The notes beneath the pieces are model-generated. The model had not been told where the DNA came from. It searched no databases and saw nothing but the letters and a program-made list of their open reading frames with translations. A DNA stretch of 64,000 bases from Escherichia phage iGC_PHA_EC001. Location: the sequence record OR437326.1; one strand, given 5' to 3'. A program made the position numbers and the translations under genes. Each line of letters starts with the position of its first letter. Within the stretch, counting starts at the first letter, position 1. This document shows positions 5,918-37,957 of the stretch, one piece after another.

Positions 5918-6488
5918 TTGTTATTGCCCTCATTACCAAAGGTCGTAGAAAATCGTAAATCTCTTGTTTTGTTTTCCCACGAATGTTTAAACAAGGAACA
6001 TTATTGGCTTTAGCTATCTTCCAAGCCGTAGCTGTTCCACCTTTTGCATCTCCATGTTTATCAGTATTAGCACAAGCCAACAAGAAACATGATGGAGCAG
6101 GATTCTCCAAATCTCTACCTAACACTTGATGCACATTACGTTGGTGCAATTTTCTAGCACCCTGCTTAAGCTTTTCATAGGCTGGGTGAACATCTTTGAT
6201 CCATTGCACAGAGATAGCATAGTTCATTGTATCTGGTTTTGCAAGAACAATAACATCCCCTGGAATCTGATTACCTTTGAAATTTTCCCAAGGAACATAA
6301 ATCTCCTTGTTAGTAGGATTTTCAGACTCTTGGACACCTGTTTCAAAAGCAGAATCACTACCCTCTGCCTTCCCAGACCTTAATTTAAACCCAAGGTTTG
6401 AAAGCCATTTCCCTATGCCTACCATCAAAGCCCACTCTTCTTCGGATATGTCTCTACTTCCAACTCCCGTATAGAACAGTTCTGCCAT
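5907..6488 (-). CDS. DprA/SLOG-like Rossmann-fold protein (putative nucleotide-binding)
   Basis: TGVGSRD ... SGKAEGSDSA resembles DprA/Smf motif (GSR ... SGxAxGID); start at MAELFY after GAGGTG RBS. Confidence 0.4.
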   Translation of the reverse strand: MAELFYTGVGSRDISEEEWALMVGIGKWLSNLGFKLRSGKAEGSDSAFETGVQESENPTNKEIYVPWENFKGNQIPGDVIVLAKPDTMNYAISVQWIKDVHPAYEKLKQGARKLHQRNVHQVLGRDLENPAPSCFLLACANTDKHGDAKGGTATAWKIAKANNVPCLNIRGKTKQEIYDFLRPLVMRAITSDS

Positions 6489-35901: not shown

Positions 35902-35976
35902 GGCCCTGTAGCTCAATGGGAGAGCTGTCGGCTCATAACCGATAGGTAGCTGGATCGAAACCAGCCAGGGCCACCA
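35902..35976 (+). tRNA. tRNA-Met (anticodon CAT; could alternatively be Ile2/lysidine)
   Basis: acceptor GGCCCTG/CAGGGCC, D-arm TAGCTCAATGGGAGAGC, anticodon loop CTCATAA, T-arm GCTGGATCGAAACCAGC, encoded CCA. Confidence 0.7.
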
Positions 35977-35978
35977 AA

Positions 35979-36053
35979 GTCTTTATGGTGTAATGGATAG
36001 CACAGGAGTCTTCTAAACTCTTAGTCAAGGTTCGATTCCTTGTAAAGACACCA
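35979..36053 (+). tRNA. tRNA-Arg (anticodon TCT)
   Basis: acceptor GTCTTTA/TAAAGAC, anticodon loop CTTCTAA, T-arm CAAGGTTCGATTCCTTG, CCA encoded. Confidence 0.7.
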
Positions 36054-36249
36054 GAACATTTTAACATGAATTAGCTCAAGTGATTTGAACCCACTACTGA
36101 TCATGGTGGCAGAGAATGAGGCAAGTATGTCAGACATTATAAACAAAGGCCACGGTTATATTAGAAGACATAAATGCTCGAAGAGCACCGTTCGTGGAGA
36201 ACGGGGGTTGGTGGAGTCACCATTCATGGTAAAATGTTTTAAAAAACTA

Positions 36250-36280
36250 TTGACAACAAACATTATTTTATGTTAGATTA
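36250..36280 (+). promoter_or_regulatory. sigma70-like promoter (AACTATTGACAA family, copy 2)
   Basis: TTGACA at 36250-36255, TAGATT 18 nt downstream, immediately upstream of tRNA-Ser. Confidence 0.45.
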
Positions 36281-36287
36281 TAAGTAT

Positions 36288-36378
36288 GGAAGGGCAAATC
36301 GATGTGGCGACGAAAACGGTCTTGAAAACCGCCGAGCTTGAAAGAGCCTTGGGAGTTCGACTCTCCCTCCTTCCGCCA
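36288..36378 (+). tRNA. tRNA-Ser (anticodon TGA), type II with long variable arm
   Basis: acceptor GGAAGGG/TCCTTCC, anticodon arm CGGTCTTGAAAACCG, T-arm GGGAGTTCGACTCTCCC, CCA. Confidence 0.65.
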
Positions 36379-36383
36379 GATTA

Positions 36384-36469
36384 GGTAGATTGGTGAAATG
36401 GTAGCCACGACAGTTTGCTAAACTGTAGTCGGAAACGGCGTGTAGGTTCGAGTCCTACATCTACCGCCA
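36384..36469 (+). tRNA. tRNA-Ser (anticodon GCT), type II
   Basis: acceptor GGTAGAT/ATCTACC, anticodon arm ACAGTTTGCTAAACTGT, T-arm GTAGGTTCGAGTCCTAC, CCA. Confidence 0.65.
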
Positions 36470-36599
36470 AGTTCTTTTTAATGTAGCTTACTTTAGCAGA
36501 GTAAATCTTCGGCAAGTGGCGGTAACCACTTTACCGATACCTCATAGTTAGTGGTCTGAACACTGGCTATTTTAAAAAGAATTTAAATATTAGTATTTA

Positions 36600-36687
36600 G
36601 GTGAGTTAATTCCGTAGGGGTAGCGGGGCAGACTGTAAATCTGTTATCATTGCGATTCGGGTGGTTCGACTCCATCACTCACCACCA
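36600..36687 (+). tRNA. tRNA-Tyr (anticodon GTA), type II
   Basis: acceptor GGTGAGT/ACTCACC, anticodon arm GCAGACTGTAAATCTGT (near identical to E. coli tRNA-Tyr), T-arm GGTGGTTCGACTCCATC, CCA. Confidence 0.65.
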
Positions 36688-36693
36688 AATTAA

Positions 36694-36779
36694 GATGAGT
36701 TGGCTGAATGGTTTAAGCGGCGGACTGTTAATCCGTGTTCGAAAGAACAATATAGGTTCGAATCCTATACTCATCGCCA
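36694..36779 (+). tRNA. tRNA with anticodon GTT (Asn by anticodon) but atypical long variable arm
   Basis: acceptor GATGAGT/ACTCATC, anticodon stem-loop GCGGA-CTGTTAA-TCCGT at positions 27-43, extra hairpin GTTCGAAAGAAC, T-arm ATAGGTTCGAATCCTAT, CCA. Confidence 0.45.
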
Positions 36780-36786
36780 GAATTAT

Positions 36787-36862
36787 GGACTTGTAGAGTT
36801 AAGGTAAACCCCAGTAGCCAAGAGGCTTCTGGAATTGCAGGTATCGAATCCTGCCGAGTCCC
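36787..36862 (+). ncRNA. tRNA-like element without canonical anticodon arm (possible pseudo-tRNA or small RNA)
   Basis: acceptor pairing GGACTTG/CGAGTCC and T-arm-like GCAGGTATCGAATCCTGC, but central region folds as CCAG-T-AGCC-AAGA-GGCT-T-CTGG hairpin. Confidence 0.3.
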
Positions 36863-36868
36863 AGCTTT

Positions 36869-36943
36869 GCTCCTATAGTATAATGGCTATTACAACGGTT
36901 TTGTAATCCGTGGATCTCTGTTCGATTCAGAGTGGGAGCACCA
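36869..36943 (+). tRNA. tRNA-Thr (anticodon TGT)
   Basis: acceptor GCTCCTA/TGGGAGC, anticodon loop TTTGTAA, T-arm CTCTGTTCGATTCAGAG, CCA. Confidence 0.7.
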
Positions 36944-37211
36944 ACACAACATTAAGGGCACTGTGATTGATCGTCGTATCCTGTGCACAAGGTCTGTTCG
37001 AAAGACAGTGTTCTTAGTATTGTGTTGATCACAAAAAGAGTCACCTGAAACTTGACCGGAGTAGGGTTGGATGGGGTAAAGAAGAAGCGGATTCTCCCAT
37101 CGACGTGATAGTTTTCCAGTGTTGCAAGCGACACCCAGGAGGTTAATCACAACCGAACGTAGGGCTAGTCACCCAAAGGGATACTCGTCACTGTCCCACT
37201 CAATAAAACTA

Positions 37212-37242
37212 TTGACAACCAATAGTAAAATGTAGTATAGTA
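37212..37242 (+). promoter_or_regulatory. sigma70-like promoter (AACTATTGACAA family, copy 3)
   Basis: TTGACA at 37212-37217, TATAGT 18 nt downstream, upstream of tRNA-Gly. Confidence 0.45.
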
Positions 37243-37252
37243 AATATGTAGG

Positions 37253-37326
37253 GCGTTCTTGGTGTAGCGGTAGCATTCCGTCCTTCCAAGTCGGCGGCAC
37301 GAGTTCGATCCTCGTAGAACGCTCCA
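37253..37326 (+). tRNA. tRNA-Gly (anticodon TCC)
   Basis: acceptor GCGTTCT/AGAACGC, anticodon loop CTTCCAA, T-arm ACGAGTTCGATCCTCGT, CCA. Confidence 0.65.
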
Positions 37327-37424
37327 AATTATTTAATAAAGGGTTGCCAGAAAACTTTCTCTTTTACTCATGGTTTTCTCCTTCTCTCACACTTCTTCTG
37401 GTTGCCCTTCATTAAATGATTTAT

Positions 37425-37500
37425 TGGTTTGTAGTGTAGTCAGGTAGCACACGACACTTTGACTGTCGTAGGTTTGGTTCAAATCCAGACAGACCAGCCA
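37425..37500 (+). tRNA. tRNA-Gln (anticodon TTG)
   Basis: acceptor TGGTTTG/CAGACCA, anticodon arm CGACACTTTGACTGTCG, T-arm TTTGGTTCAAATCCAGA, CCA. Confidence 0.7.
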
Positions 37501-37505
37501 TATAA

Positions 37506-37582
37506 CGGAATTTAGCTCAGTTTGGTAGAGCATACGCTTTGGGAGCGTAGGGTCGCAGGTTCGAATCCTGCAATTCCGACCA
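37506..37582 (+). tRNA. tRNA-Pro (anticodon TGG)
   Basis: acceptor CGGAATT/AATTCCG, D-arm GCTCAGTTTGGTAGAGC, anticodon arm TACGCTTTGGGAGCGTA, T-arm GCAGGTTCGAATCCTGC, CCA. Confidence 0.75.
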
Positions 37583-37588
37583 ATTTAA

Positions 37589-37662
37589 TGTTTCGTAGTT
37601 CAATGGTAGAACCCACGACTGATAATCGTGAGATACAAGTTCGATTCTTGTCGAAACAACCA
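37589..37662 (+). tRNA. tRNA-Ile (anticodon GAT)
   Basis: acceptor TGTTTCG/CGAAACA, anticodon arm CACGACTGATAATCGTG, T-arm ACAAGTTCGATTCTTGT, CCA. Confidence 0.75.
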
Positions 37663-37664
37663 GT

Positions 37665-37734
37665 TTCCCGTTAGACTTACAGGATAAGAGTTCCACAACT
37701 TATTGTGATGCTGGTTCGAATCCAGCACGGGATA
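37665..37734 (+). ncRNA. tRNA-like element, anticodon not assignable
   Basis: acceptor TTCCCGT/ACGGGAT (1:72 mismatch) and canonical T-arm GCTGGTTCGAATCCAGC, but no 5-bp/7-nt anticodon stem-loop could be folded (CACAA-CTTA-TTGTG tetraloop hairpin instead); no encoded CCA. Confidence 0.3.
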
Positions 37735-37740
37735 CCTAAT

Positions 37741-37819
37741 AGCGGGATAGAGGAGTCTGGTCGTCCTCGCCAGTTTCATATGCTGGAGATCATCGGTTCA
37801 AATCCGATTCCCGCCTCCA
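37741..37819 (+). tRNA. tRNA-Met-like (anticodon CAT) with unpaired 1:72 and TTCAAAT T-loop (possible initiator-type)
   Basis: acceptor AGCGGGA/TCCCGCC (A1 x C72), anticodon arm CCAGT-TTCATAT-GCTGG, T-arm ATCGGTTCAAATCCGAT, CCA. Confidence 0.5.
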
Positions 37820-37934: not shown

Positions 37935-37957
37935 AGCCTCCTTATTGGAGGCTTTTT
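37935..37957 (+). terminator. rho-independent terminator at end of tRNA cluster
   Basis: AGCCTCC TTATT GGAGGCT hairpin followed by TTTTT. Confidence 0.7.

Follow-up and report, generated by a model that had tools for sequence, protein, structure and literature searches.

In the tRNA cluster of a Phapecoctavirus-like coliphage, the source of the 64,000-nt stretch of DNA analysed here as a whole (the window), three unusual elements probably belong to a polycistronic operon of phage tRNA genes, one of them a real tRNA and the other two tRNA-shaped RNAs that would not decode. The real tRNA is a tRNA-Asn(GUU) with an extra arm in its variable region; the other two, elements A and B, are most likely cut out by RNase P within the polycistronic tRNA transcripts. 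Position, motifs and covariance model identify A as the counterpart of RNA3 of phage T5, and B, judged by a family model of its own, is a member of a second tRNA-like family, separate from that of A and T5 RNA3.

Table 1. Features of the tRNA cluster discussed in the text (positions in the window)
Feature	Position	Strand	Basis
Predicted sigma-70-like promoter, TTGACA-18-TAGATT, TG-extended	36250..36279	+	Consensus scan, 10/12 matches; pattern match only
tRNA-Asn(GUU), 86 nt, encoded G73-CCA, anticodon 36727-36729, 3-bp D stem, 15-nt variable region	36694..36779	+	ARAGORN; Rfam; MFE fold
Extra (variable-arm) hairpin of tRNA-Asn, GUUC-GAAA-GAAC, 12 nt	36737..36748	+	MFE fold
Element A, putative non-decoding tRNA-like RNA, T5 RNA3 counterpart	36787..36862	+	Rfam below cut-off; z-score; covariance model R2; covariation
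Predicted sigma-70-like promoter, TTGACA-18-TATAGT	37212..37241	+	Consensus scan, 11/12 matches; pattern match only
Element B, putative non-decoding tRNA-like RNA	37665..37734	+	Rfam below cut-off; z-score; family model R1; covariation
Intrinsic-terminator-like hairpin followed by T run, end of tRNA cluster	37935..37953	+	Scan

The cluster and its long-armed tRNA-Asn

Fourteen tRNA-shaped elements make up the cluster: 12 true tRNAs, all of which encode a 3' CCA as read from the sequence, plus A and B, the only two without it. The earlier note, which had counted 11 canonical tRNAs and three unusual elements, was right in this total, and ARAGORN, Rfam and the MFE folds find the three elements where it had placed them, with the features it described. 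Spacers of 2-7 nt lie between A or B and the adjoining genes. The predicted promoter at 36250 is the probable start of a transcript carrying Ser(UGA), Ser(GCU), Tyr, Asn, element A and Thr, and that at 37212 probably begins one with Gly, Gln, Pro, Ile, element B and Met; in the homologous ASO2A record, the terminator at the cluster end is annotated as rho-independent. Phapecoctavirus genomes are 94-99% identical across the tRNA-cluster region. A weak YrlA-like Rfam match spanning Pro to Ile was rejected as chance, its 24 bits falling well short of the threshold, 69, and comparison of the window's conserved spacers with the T5 stable RNAs gave no match.

The tRNA-Asn gene is called tRNA-Asn(gtt) by ARAGORN, scores 62.1 bits against RF00005, above the gathering threshold of 29, and folds by MFE into a cloverleaf plus one additional hairpin, with the standard 5-bp stem and 7-nt loop in its anticodon arm. 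The earlier note had described just this, a well-formed GTT anticodon arm together with an extra hairpin in the variable region. All 20 nt of the anticodon stem-loop are the same as in E. coli asnT, the variable loop of which has 5 nt. Like the class II tRNAs (bacterial Ser, Leu, Tyr and Sec), the phage tRNA has a 3-bp D stem and a base-paired extra arm that separates its anticodon arm from its T arm, and its variable region is of the size and form of that class (more than 10 nt, with a stem-loop); it differs from those isotypes in its Asn anticodon, GUU, since cellular tRNA-Asn belongs to class I. To our knowledge, GNRA caps are not typical of class II arms, unlike most of the phage tRNA-Asn arms described next.

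Long-arm tRNA-Asn genes were collected as a set of 102 distinct sequences, drawn from mobile tRNA arrays and a wide range of phage groups, to which they are nearly confined; none was found in E. coli genomes. Their arms differ in length, so that no column-wise covariation score was taken and the arms of the 102 sequences were folded singly. Folded in this way, the variable region forms a hairpin in 98 of the 102, with a mean MFE for the extra arm of -3.3 kcal/mol as against -0.6 in shuffles. The arms use 45 distinct, covarying stems, and 68 of the 98 are closed by GNRA loops. The modal length is 15 nt, with stems of 3-5 bp (only 3-4 bp in 76/102). G73 is kept in 98 of the 102 sequences, and position 1 is U in 66 and G in 35. 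The tRNA-Asn of the T5 reference strain, which precedes rna3, is of the short-arm kind and measures 78 nt.

AsnRS identity resides in the anticodon (G34 U35 U36) and G73, and is transplantable (PMC9976931). The window gene has both, GUU in the anticodon and G73 before CCA, and because these two known identity elements are retained it is presumably charged by the host AsnRS. By these marks it is a genuine, working tRNA-Asn(GUU), and the recurrence and covariation of the extra arm make that arm a maintained trait common in phages rather than a defect. To group this gene with the aberrant elements of the cluster, as the earlier note had done, was therefore misleading.

Element A and its relation to T5 RNA3

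A has an acceptor stem of 7 bp (36787-93 with 36855-61), a D region at 36794-36809 (UAGAGUUAAGGUAAAC) and, at 36811-36832, a central arm CCAG-U-AGCC-AAGA-GGCU-U-CUGG, that is, a 9-bp stem with one U.U capped by an AAGA tetraloop. Its T arm (36837-36854) joins a 5-bp stem to an 8-nt loop, UAUCGAAU, where a canonical tRNA has 7 nt. At the 5' end there is U at -1 and G at +1, and the 3' end reads ..GAGUCC-C-AGC, with C at 36862 followed by AGC and without CCA. In A as in B, MFE folds show a tetraloop hairpin in place of a 5-bp, 7-nt anticodon arm, as the earlier note had seen, and its hand folds were not overturned by tRNA finders: ARAGORN is silent on both elements, the Rfam tRNA model gives A 17.2 bits and B 25.2 against the gathering threshold of 29, and three annotated GenBank records, one of them stating the use of tRNAscan-SE, report nothing in the A and B gaps. 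Whether run with gathering or with permissive thresholds, Rfam returned for A and B sub-threshold tRNA matches only. The folding z-score of A is -3.9, with one of 200 shuffles folding as well.

A was found in ~480 genomes of T5-like phages, Phapecoctavirus and Justusliebigvirus, and in the ~126 that are phAPEC8-like and phi92-like it is unannotated. Our own covariance model for the family, R2, the seed of which included the window sequence of A itself, gives 83.2 bits to that sequence, 89.7 to T5 rna3 and 73.0 to the VEcB copy; members fall between 70 and 91 bits and all others at or below 31 (best non-member 30.6). T5 rna3 (gene T5s07, NC_005859 33877-33949) is annotated 'putative tRNA-like RNA', and T5 RNA1 and RNA2 as 'tRNA-like stable RNA with unknown functions'. 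RNA3 and the window A have in common the slot 3' of tRNA-Asn, the D-region motif GUAGAGUUAA, an 8-nt T loop YAUCGAAU, a hairpin replacing the anticodon arm and a match to R2 over the full length. They differ at the 3' end, which is U-A-CCA in RNA3, without CCA in the window A and ..AAGCA-AAUAU in the VEcB copy; in the central hairpin, of 6 bp with a 6-nt loop in RNA3 as against 9 bp with a tetraloop; and in what follows, an ORF in T5 and tRNA-Thr in the window.

In all examined loci except one, L007, where an ORF stands in place of Asn, A lies directly 3' of tRNA-Asn, the spacer being 7 nt in the window, 2-3 nt in T5-like phages and 5 nt in VEcB. A strict coupling of A to the long-arm tRNA-Asn was considered and rejected on account of this ORF and of the short-arm Asn before rna3 in the T5 reference. 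Another hit, L018, has only the 8-nt T loop in common with the family and was rejected by R2. Covariance-model searches of ~140 viral and genomic loci with long-arm tRNA-Asn found no A beyond T5-like phages, Phapecoctavirus and Justusliebigvirus, and none of B beyond nine known loci in five phage groups. Exact-pattern scans of IMG/VR gave five contigs for A and two for B, the annotated phage collection being far richer.

Covariation shows that the fold of the A family is under selection. In eight of the 12 acceptor and T pairs both partners change; pairing is kept in 94% of the cells of the alignment as against 25-44% with the partner slid; and the covariation score was reached by none of 500 shuffles. 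The central arm differs in length between clades, so it was folded clade by clade and its covariation was not scored column-wise. Between genera A is 68% identical, compared with 60-74% for true tRNAs and 49% for unalignable spacer. From T5-like phages to Stephanstirmvirinae, the sequences of the D region and the 8-nt T loop are nearly invariant. Within the genus, copies of A differ from one another in the central arm alone (p=0.01), a value that, like those for B below, is only indicative, coming from Fisher tests on 10 genomes with related sequences.

Element B and its family

The acceptor stem of B has 6 bp (37666-71 with 37727-32) plus a U.U at 37665/37733, corresponding to 1:72. The D region occupies 37672-37691; the central hairpin at 37694-37707, CACAA-CUUA-UUGUG, has 5 bp and is capped by a CUUA tetraloop; and the T arm at 37710-37726, GCUGG-UUCGAAU-CCAGC, is perfect and canonical. 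The 3' end is ..CGGGA-U-A-CCU, with A at 37734 followed by CCU (CAU in most relatives) and without CCA. B has a folding z-score of -3.05, and none of 200 shuffles folds as well. It scores 89.6 bits against family model R1, with non-members at or below 43, and across the five phage groups 10 of the 20 pairs of the family are compensatory. Comparison with T5 RNA1, RNA2 and the other T5 stable RNAs gave no match. Some relatives of B have loops of 7-9 nt and CCA ends, and the family includes a phiEB49 gene, anticodon-bearing, that is annotated and called as tRNA-Val(AAC).

In the B of the Phapecoctavirus genus, three nucleotides are gone from the anticodon loop, together with the CCA and the 1:72 pair. 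Over 10 genomes of the genus, all seven polymorphic columns lie in 37672-37709 (7 of the 38 lower-half columns) and none among the 32 of the acceptor/T minihelix (p=0.013); the same 0/32 stands against 11% variable columns in the spacers (p=0.04), and the lower half varies at the spacer rate. Among the changes are a break in the D stem and, in one genome, a D-loop GG that has become AG. The latter, together with the anticodon-loop deletion, the passage of CCA to CCU or CAU and the 1:72 mismatch, looks like decay.

Proposed roles of the two RNAs

Because their loops have only 4 nt, the window A and B would be unable to present an anticodon; with no CCA and with acceptor and T helices that are maintained, they fit the non-decoding options that the earlier note had listed, and this part of its overall interpretation stands, whereas its proposal of noncanonical decoding finds no support in these two copies. 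We suggest that A and B are co-transcribed with the adjoining tRNAs and that, to judge by their shape, the acceptor/T minihelix of each would be recognised by host RNase P. A cut at the 5' end of A or B would free the upstream tRNA with a trailer of 2-7 nt, and a cut at the next tRNA would release A and B as RNAs of ~75-80 nt. It speaks for this mechanism that E. coli RNase P by itself separates closely spaced polycistronic tRNAs (PMC2190699, PMC4176162, PMC7049720). In so crowded a tRNA transcript, A and B would in this way be processing punctuation at the least, and A may additionally act in trans as a mimic of the tRNA top half, a role suggested by its D-region and T-loop sequences, invariant across unrelated phages.

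Punctuation alone would fail to account for that near-invariance, or for the retention of A and B instead of their deletion. Against this role there also stands the missing 3' CCA of the window copies, an aid to bacterial RNase P substrate binding, and in B the U.U at 1:72 as well. Since in T5-like phages A precedes an ORF and not a tRNA, its role towards the downstream gene would differ between phages.

There are precedents of two kinds. 'Species 1 and 2' of phage T4 (RNA C and D) are small, stable, tRNA-like RNAs lying among phage tRNA genes, co-transcribed and co-processed with them; they are longer, at ~120-140 nt, and the likeness to A and B drawn here is one of general description. The t-elements of plant mitochondria, the mascRNA of MALAT1 and the tRNA-like/miRNA units of murine gammaherpesvirus 68 are non-decoding, tRNA-shaped modules that recruit RNase P and RNase Z, by which neighbouring RNAs are cut out, the same mechanism as is proposed here for A and B. 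These are, however, eukaryotic or organellar and without homology to A or B, the neighbours of which are themselves tRNAs, so that an extra signal is less obviously needed.

That A, B or both are functionless dead tRNA pseudogenes, conserved through recent ancestry and horizontal transfer, is unlikely, and the earlier note's suggestion of a pseudo-tRNA fares differently for the two. Neither window copy encodes CCA, and genomes as similar as those of Phapecoctavirus are here give little time depth. A is nevertheless still present in three clades whose DNA otherwise aligns only with difficulty, among them the one with T5 RNA3, and is retained where the Asn gene has been replaced by an ORF or by a different Asn allele; with its compensated stem pairs, its paired cells and a degree of conservation like that of true tRNAs, it is unlike a pseudogene, and the suggestion is too weak for it. 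B resembles one in its lost anticodon loop, CCA and 1:72 pair and in the drift of its D, central and variable regions, so that for its lower half the suggestion is plausible, but its acceptor/T arm is invariant and its family covaries across five phage groups. The spacer-rate, uncompensated spread of a neutral pseudogene is thus seen in the lower half of B alone, and neither in A nor in B as a whole. Functional noncanonical decoding, with A and B reading codons by an unusual loop, or with the long-arm tRNA-Asn serylated by SerRS and recoding Asn codons, we regard as highly improbable. SerRS ignores the anticodon and reads mainly the long variable arm and G73 (PMC9976931); the phage tRNA-Asn has G73 and an extra arm, and the larger loops and CCA ends of some B relatives, including the tRNA-Val call in phiEB49, would suit decoding. 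The 4-nt loops of the window copies would not. Bacterial tRNA-Ser also conserves G1-C72 and G2-C71 (PMC9976931), and the window tRNA-Asn, with G1-C72, has A2-U71 instead of G2-C71 and a short arm; in the set as a whole most arm stems reach only 3-4 bp, and with G1 as rare as it is at most about a third can form the G1-C72 of tRNA-Ser. The exact host Asn anticodon stem-loop and G73 favour charging by AsnRS.

A reading that we consider possible though doubtful makes A and B trans-acting mimics of the tRNA top half, decoys or sponges for a host or phage protein that reads the acceptor and T elbow, such as a tRNA-directed defence nuclease or toxin, a modification enzyme or the CCA-adding enzyme, with the extra arm of the tRNA-Asn serving the same arms race by altering nuclease recognition. 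The near-invariance of the A loop and D region across unrelated phages exceeds what recognition by RNase P needs, A in T5-like phages ends in A-CCA as a mature tRNA does, and the long-arm tRNA-Asn has its near-confinement to phages and mobile tRNA arrays, with none in E. coli genomes. Phage tRNA clusters are, moreover, documented counter-defence tools: T5 tRNA-Tyr counters retron-Eco7, and the tRNA-Lys of a T5-like phage (SP15), acting in trans, counters PrrC (PMC11555353), and the title of PMC11464382 indicates a similar phage-tRNA effect for PARIS. On the other side, no tRNA-Asn-specific defence system was found in the literature searched, and the SP15 tRNA-Asn gave no rescue from PrrC170 (PMC11555353); the window copies end without CCA, the lower half of B is drifting, and the short-arm tRNA-Asn of the T5 reference strain implies that one successful phage, at least, can do without the arm. 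It is with the same doubt that we raise the possibility of A, B and the GNRA-capped Asn arm together forming a counter-defence module at the Asn slot, common to T5-like siphoviruses and phi92/phAPEC8-like myoviruses, in which the arm might be a structural badge by which the viral tRNA escapes, or is distinguished from, a host factor targeting tRNA-Asn.

T5 RNA3 was already known as an annotated tRNA-like RNA, and the literature searched contained no description of the long-arm phage tRNA-Asn or of elements A and B, the older T5 papers in subscription journals, where an earlier description is possible, lying outside its scope. A and B go unmarked in all inspected records except for the T5 reference entry for RNA3, a gap in annotation. 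What is new is the tie between T5 RNA3 and the A of the phAPEC8-like and phi92-like genomes; the definition of the B family, of which, in the Phapecoctavirus genus, only the half that RNase P would read is conserved; and the recurrence, in phages and in mobile tRNA arrays, of a GNRA-capped extra arm on tRNA-Asn. Small tRNA-like RNAs in phage tRNA clusters were first observed in T4 and T5; we know of no function assigned to them in the time since, and A and B would be new members of that unexplained kind. With phage tRNA clusters now viewed as tools of counter-defence, these observations bear on two old questions, namely the purpose of phage tRNA-like RNAs and the reason for the difference in shape between phage and host tRNAs.

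The tRNA cluster and its long-arm tRNA-Asn

Around the elements described in the earlier note, 2.2 kb of sequence matches the tRNA cluster of phAPEC8/ESCO13-group Phapecoctavirus phages at 96-98% identity; these phages, about 150 kb in size, are myoviruses and belong to the subfamily Stephanstirmvirinae. Hand folding in the earlier note had given 14 tRNA-shaped units, and these prove to be 12 true tRNAs plus element A, between the tRNA-Asn and tRNA-Thr genes, and element B, between tRNA-Ile and tRNA-Met. ARAGORN calls ten of the tRNAs and Rfam adds tRNA-Tyr; the sole signal for tRNA-Ser(UGA) in the window is a sub-threshold match to the tRNA-Sec model (35.7 bits, threshold 47), while tRNAscan-SE calls Ser-TGA in the related phage ASO2A. 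Read directly from the sequence, all 12 carry an encoded CCA, with gaps of 2-7 nt where genes abut.

Features of the tRNA cluster, in window positions
Feature	Position	Strand	Basis or remark
tRNA cluster	35902-37819	+	
Sigma-70-like promoters ahead of cluster units	35663, 36250, 37212		sequence scan
Terminator-like hairpin at cluster end	37935-37953		sequence scan
tRNA-Met(CAU) or tRNA-Ile(CAT)	35902-35976		Met by ARAGORN; Ile by tRNAscan-SE in phage ASO2A
tRNA-Ser(UGA)-like gene	36288-36377		no ARAGORN call, no Rfam tRNA report
Ser-Tyr spacer	36470-36599		130 nt
tRNA-Tyr(GUA)	36600-36687		no ARAGORN call; Rfam match 36600-36684, 39 bits
Long-arm tRNA-Asn	36694-36779		ARAGORN tRNA-Asn(gtt); Rfam tRNA 62.1 bits
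Variable-region hairpin of tRNA-Asn	36737-36748		GUUC-GAAA-GAAC, beside the cloverleaf in the MFE fold
Element A	36787-36862		no ARAGORN call; Rfam tRNA 17.2 bits, threshold 29
Gly-Gln spacer	37327-37424		98 nt, non-tRNA
Element B	37665-37734		no ARAGORN call; Rfam tRNA 25.2 bits, threshold 29
D, central and variable region of B	37672-37709		holds 7/7 columns variable within the genus
tRNA-Met(CAU)	37741-37819		79 nt, D stem 5 bp, anticodon at position 37; 'tRNA-Pseudo-CAT' in one relative

The tRNA-Ser(UGA)-like gene has a long arm and CCA, and its D region appears irregular. The tRNA-Tyr, marked 'tRNA-Pseudo-GTA' in the Mt1B1_P17 record, is 84% identical to the tRNA-Tyr of phage T5, which is reported to counter retron-Eco7 (PMC11555353). 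The odd form of the last gene, tRNA-Met(CAU), is seen again in Justusliebigvirus-type clusters (L017, L020), and the first gene, read as Met or Ile according to the program, is possibly a lysidine-dependent Ile2. Gene content is fluid among relatives (loci L003, 2013-2179, and L010, 2439-2798): some Phapecoctavirus genomes have a second tRNA-Pro copy between Gln and Pro, and Justusliebigvirus VEcB has an HNH endonuclease gene there. The Gly-Gln spacer, with one variable column among 10 Phapecoctavirus genomes and 68% identity to VEcB, is conserved to the same degree as the tRNAs and folds as a long hairpin (-24 kcal/mol); it may be a further structured RNA. The Ser-Tyr spacer forms a multi-hairpin fold (-34 kcal/mol) and is 72% identical to the VEcB spacer upstream of tRNA-Lys(UUU), a gene that VEcB carries between that spacer and tRNA-Tyr and that the window lacks.

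Both the Asn anticodon and the extra variable-region hairpin that the earlier note had described hold up. A long tRNA-Asn (83-87 nt by ARAGORN) is present in all eight other phages compared, namely the T4-like Serratia CHI14 and Enterobacter VIPECLUMC02, the T5-like T5_ev212 and Salmonella SB9, Klebsiella Seu621 (Vequintavirinae), VEcB, jumbo phage Muenster and Pseudomonas 2PS; the extra arm is paired in each, with differing sequences (GUC/GAC, GAAC/GUUC, GAGC/GCUC, AUCC/GGAU, GUCA/UGAC, GGC/GCC). A search pattern that a long variable region alone can satisfy matched 115 viral contigs and just 25 contigs among 185,579 bacterial and archaeal species (one genome each), and no close copy was found in 5,426 E. 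coli genomes. The cellular matches confirmed by ARAGORN as long tRNA-Asn lie mostly within tRNA clusters, the extreme cases being actinobacterial chromosomal arrays, in Micromonospora and Verrucosispora, of 32-36 tRNAs within 8 kb (L146, L147, L150), which include a 90-nt long-arm tRNA-Asn.

A set of 102 unique long-arm sequences has variable regions of 11-20 nt (mode 15), of which 98 fold as a hairpin, with a GNRA loop in 68 of these (GAAA in 51) and 45 distinct stem sequences. The mean MFE of the region is -3.3 kcal/mol vs. -0.6 in shuffles, and G73 is present in 98 of the 102. Lengths in the loci extracted here are bimodal (71-79 vs. 81-91 nt), and a tRNA-cluster setting is commoner for the long form (95/110 vs. 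81/134 for the short). The long arm is not universal, the T5 reference strain having a 78-nt short-arm tRNA-Asn. Over all its 20 nt the anticodon stem-loop of the window gene matches that of E. coli asnT, a tRNA with a variable loop of 5 nt. Since the identity elements for AsnRS are the anticodon and G73, which can be moved to a different tRNA body (PMC9976931), we conclude from sequence that this is in all likelihood a working Asn tRNA; many matching records annotate it plainly as tRNA-Asn. A class II-like arm on this class I isotype appears to be undescribed in the literature searched, older T5 papers being outside its scope.

Element A and the T5 RNA3 family

Good acceptor and T stems without a canonical anticodon arm were confirmed for both elements, and in three annotated GenBank relatives inspected neither gap carries an annotation. 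In A the place of the anticodon arm is taken by CCAG-U-AGCC-AAGA-GGCU-U-CUGG; the fold is much more stable than shuffles (z = -3.9), the T loop is 8 nt, and the 3' end is C-AGC, without CCA. By BLAST, A is found in 87 Phapecoctavirus records at 94% identity or more. A diverged copy (68%) occupies the Asn-Thr gap of VEcB, a version present in 39 records; between the two genera true tRNAs are 60-74% identical, except for a near-identical Ser(GCU) at 97%, and unalignable spacer is at 49%. A D-region motif scan of the extracted loci located the same element 2-3 nt after tRNA-Asn in T5-like phages (354 Demerecviridae records), where it ends in U-A-CCA, with an ORF start 28 nt downstream; the VEcB version, like that of the window, lacks CCA.

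When 13 sequences from the three clades are aligned, 8/12 acceptor and T-stem pairs have changed on both sides, 94% of cells are paired vs. 25-44% with the partner slid, and the covariation score is reached by 0/500 shuffles. The D region (UAGAGUUAA..AAACC) and the T loop (YAUCRAAU) are nearly invariant. In every clade the central arm is a hairpin that lacks a 7-nt loop, and its form is clade-specific: T5-like phages have a 6-nt loop on a 6-bp stem, VEcB an AUUU loop on a 6-bp stem, and the window a tetraloop on 9 bp. Among 10 Phapecoctavirus genomes variation is confined to this arm and the adjacent C-run (4/26 columns vs. 0/52 elsewhere, p = 0.01). A also persists in L007, where a 42-codon ORF stands in the slot of the Asn gene, and in T5, where that slot holds another Asn allele. 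On these grounds we regard A as a structured RNA under selection that does not decode, and not as a decaying pseudogene.

The swap in L007 (IMGVR_UViG_3300014004_000001, 6030-6186), a Phapecoctavirus-like locus, is precise: the ORF (MLFDNWFDLEKVCIGITFTGGAPEYKYAMLQTNGLSVRLQSI) has a GGAGG ribosome-binding site, and the 7-nt spacer and A are kept. In T5 (NC_005859, 33952-34029; L288, 3953-4030) the short-arm tRNA-Asn lies upstream of rna3, in a slot that holds an 83-nt long-arm gene in T5_ev212 and all other extracted element-carrying T5-like loci, which means that one Asn gene was exchanged for another and RNA3 was kept.

In the T5 reference annotation three tRNA-like RNAs of unknown function are entered, RNA1, RNA2 and RNA3; in T4, too, the tRNA cluster specifies two stable RNAs that have no known function. 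T5 rna3 (misc_RNA, 'RNA3, putative tRNA-like RNA') is exactly the interval of the T5-like A. Our covariance model R2, built for the A family, matches it over its full length at 89.7 bits, family members scoring 70-91 and all else at most 31 across some 1.26 Mb of DNA from phage tRNA clusters. By model and position the window's A, though lacking the CCA end, belongs to the T5 RNA3 family, to which it adds a new member. An unrelated viral contig (L018, IMGVR_UViG_3300027994_000006, 620-880) contains two or more tRNA-like elements that are long and irregular. One of these shares A's 8-nt T loop (GCAGG-UAUCGAAU-CCUGU); R2 rejects that element as a member, and ARAGORN finds no tRNA in this 4.4-kb locus.

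Element B, half-conserved within the genus

B represents a second family of such tRNA-like RNAs, distinct from that of A. Its central arm is CACAA-CUUA-UUGUG, and it too folds much better than shuffles (z = -3.05), with U.U at 1:72 and a 3' end of A-CCU, without CCA. Besides 77 Phapecoctavirus records, relatives of 73-84% identity occur in some Vequintavirinae (A7_1, UPEC06, LTH01), drexlervirus phiEB49, N4-like Klebsiella phages (KP8, BaqKoxi) and the large phage SonariX; in phiEB49 both the annotation and the tRNA call give tRNA-Val(AAC). The acceptor, central and T helices are all supported by RNAalifold (10/20 pairs compensated), and model R1, built for this family, scores members at 79-96 bits vs. 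at most 43 for ordinary tRNAs. The central stem is conserved and its loop varies in length: 4 nt in the window, 7 in Vequintavirinae and phiEB49, 8 in KP8 and 9 in SonariX. The Vequintavirinae loop reads CGUAUCG or CGUCUCG, position 33 being G; the A7_1 and UPEC06 copies (L004 and L005, both 2502-2577) have CCA ends, differ in the loop only at the middle 'anticodon' base and receive no ARAGORN call. All relatives outside Phapecoctavirus end in N-CCA, those within it in CCU or CAU.

Within the genus the lower half of B (its D, central and variable region) varies at the rate of spacer, far above true tRNAs, and includes changes that would damage a real tRNA (D-loop GG to AG, one D-stem pair broken), while no variation is seen at the 32 positions of the acceptor stem, T arm and discriminator (p = 0.013). 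Identity between B and its Vequintavirinae copy is 81%, in a comparison in which true tRNAs reach 60-75%, none as high.

Possible roles

Neither element has a means of presenting an anticodon. Both lie 2-7 nt from true tRNAs, in units bounded by promoter-like and terminator-like sites, and selection holds constant their acceptor and T helices and, in A, the D region and T loop as well. Polycistronic tRNAs that lie close together are separated in E. coli by RNase P without other enzymes (PMC2190699, PMC4176162, PMC7049720). Because of this, and because the acceptor/T minihelix would be the feature that RNase P recognizes, both elements are probably cleaved at the 5' end, as tRNAs are, which would leave the upstream Asn or Ile with a short trailer and free the elements as small RNAs. 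An otherwise dead tRNA kept as processing punctuation fits the split constraint of B well. For A such punctuation is the minimum; the invariance of its loops in phages that are unrelated, together with the CCA end of the T5-like version, suggests that it may also act in trans, as a mimic of the tRNA top half.

The observation in the earlier note is confirmed, and its interpretation, which ranged over pseudo-tRNAs, regulatory RNAs, processing-signal mimics and noncanonical decoding, is borne out only in part. We favor, with some reserve, a real tRNA-Asn accompanied by two non-decoding, selected elements that would be processed by RNase P; within this reading, punctuation as their main function is a more tentative proposal, somewhat short of an even chance. 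Decoy or counter-defense RNAs seem rather improbable, and plain pseudogenes, a reading that concerns chiefly B, slightly more so. Noncanonical decoding or serylation is very improbable. Charging of the tRNA-Asn with serine through its extra arm is unlikely on sequence grounds, given A2-U71 in the window instead of the conserved G2-C71, a U1 start in most long-arm sequences, and stems of just 3-4 bp.

The elements are real and under selection, and their class is known though not yet explained. Useful leads that can be tested are the link of T5 RNA3 across phage families, the half-conserved B and the tRNA-Asn with its phage-specific long arm.
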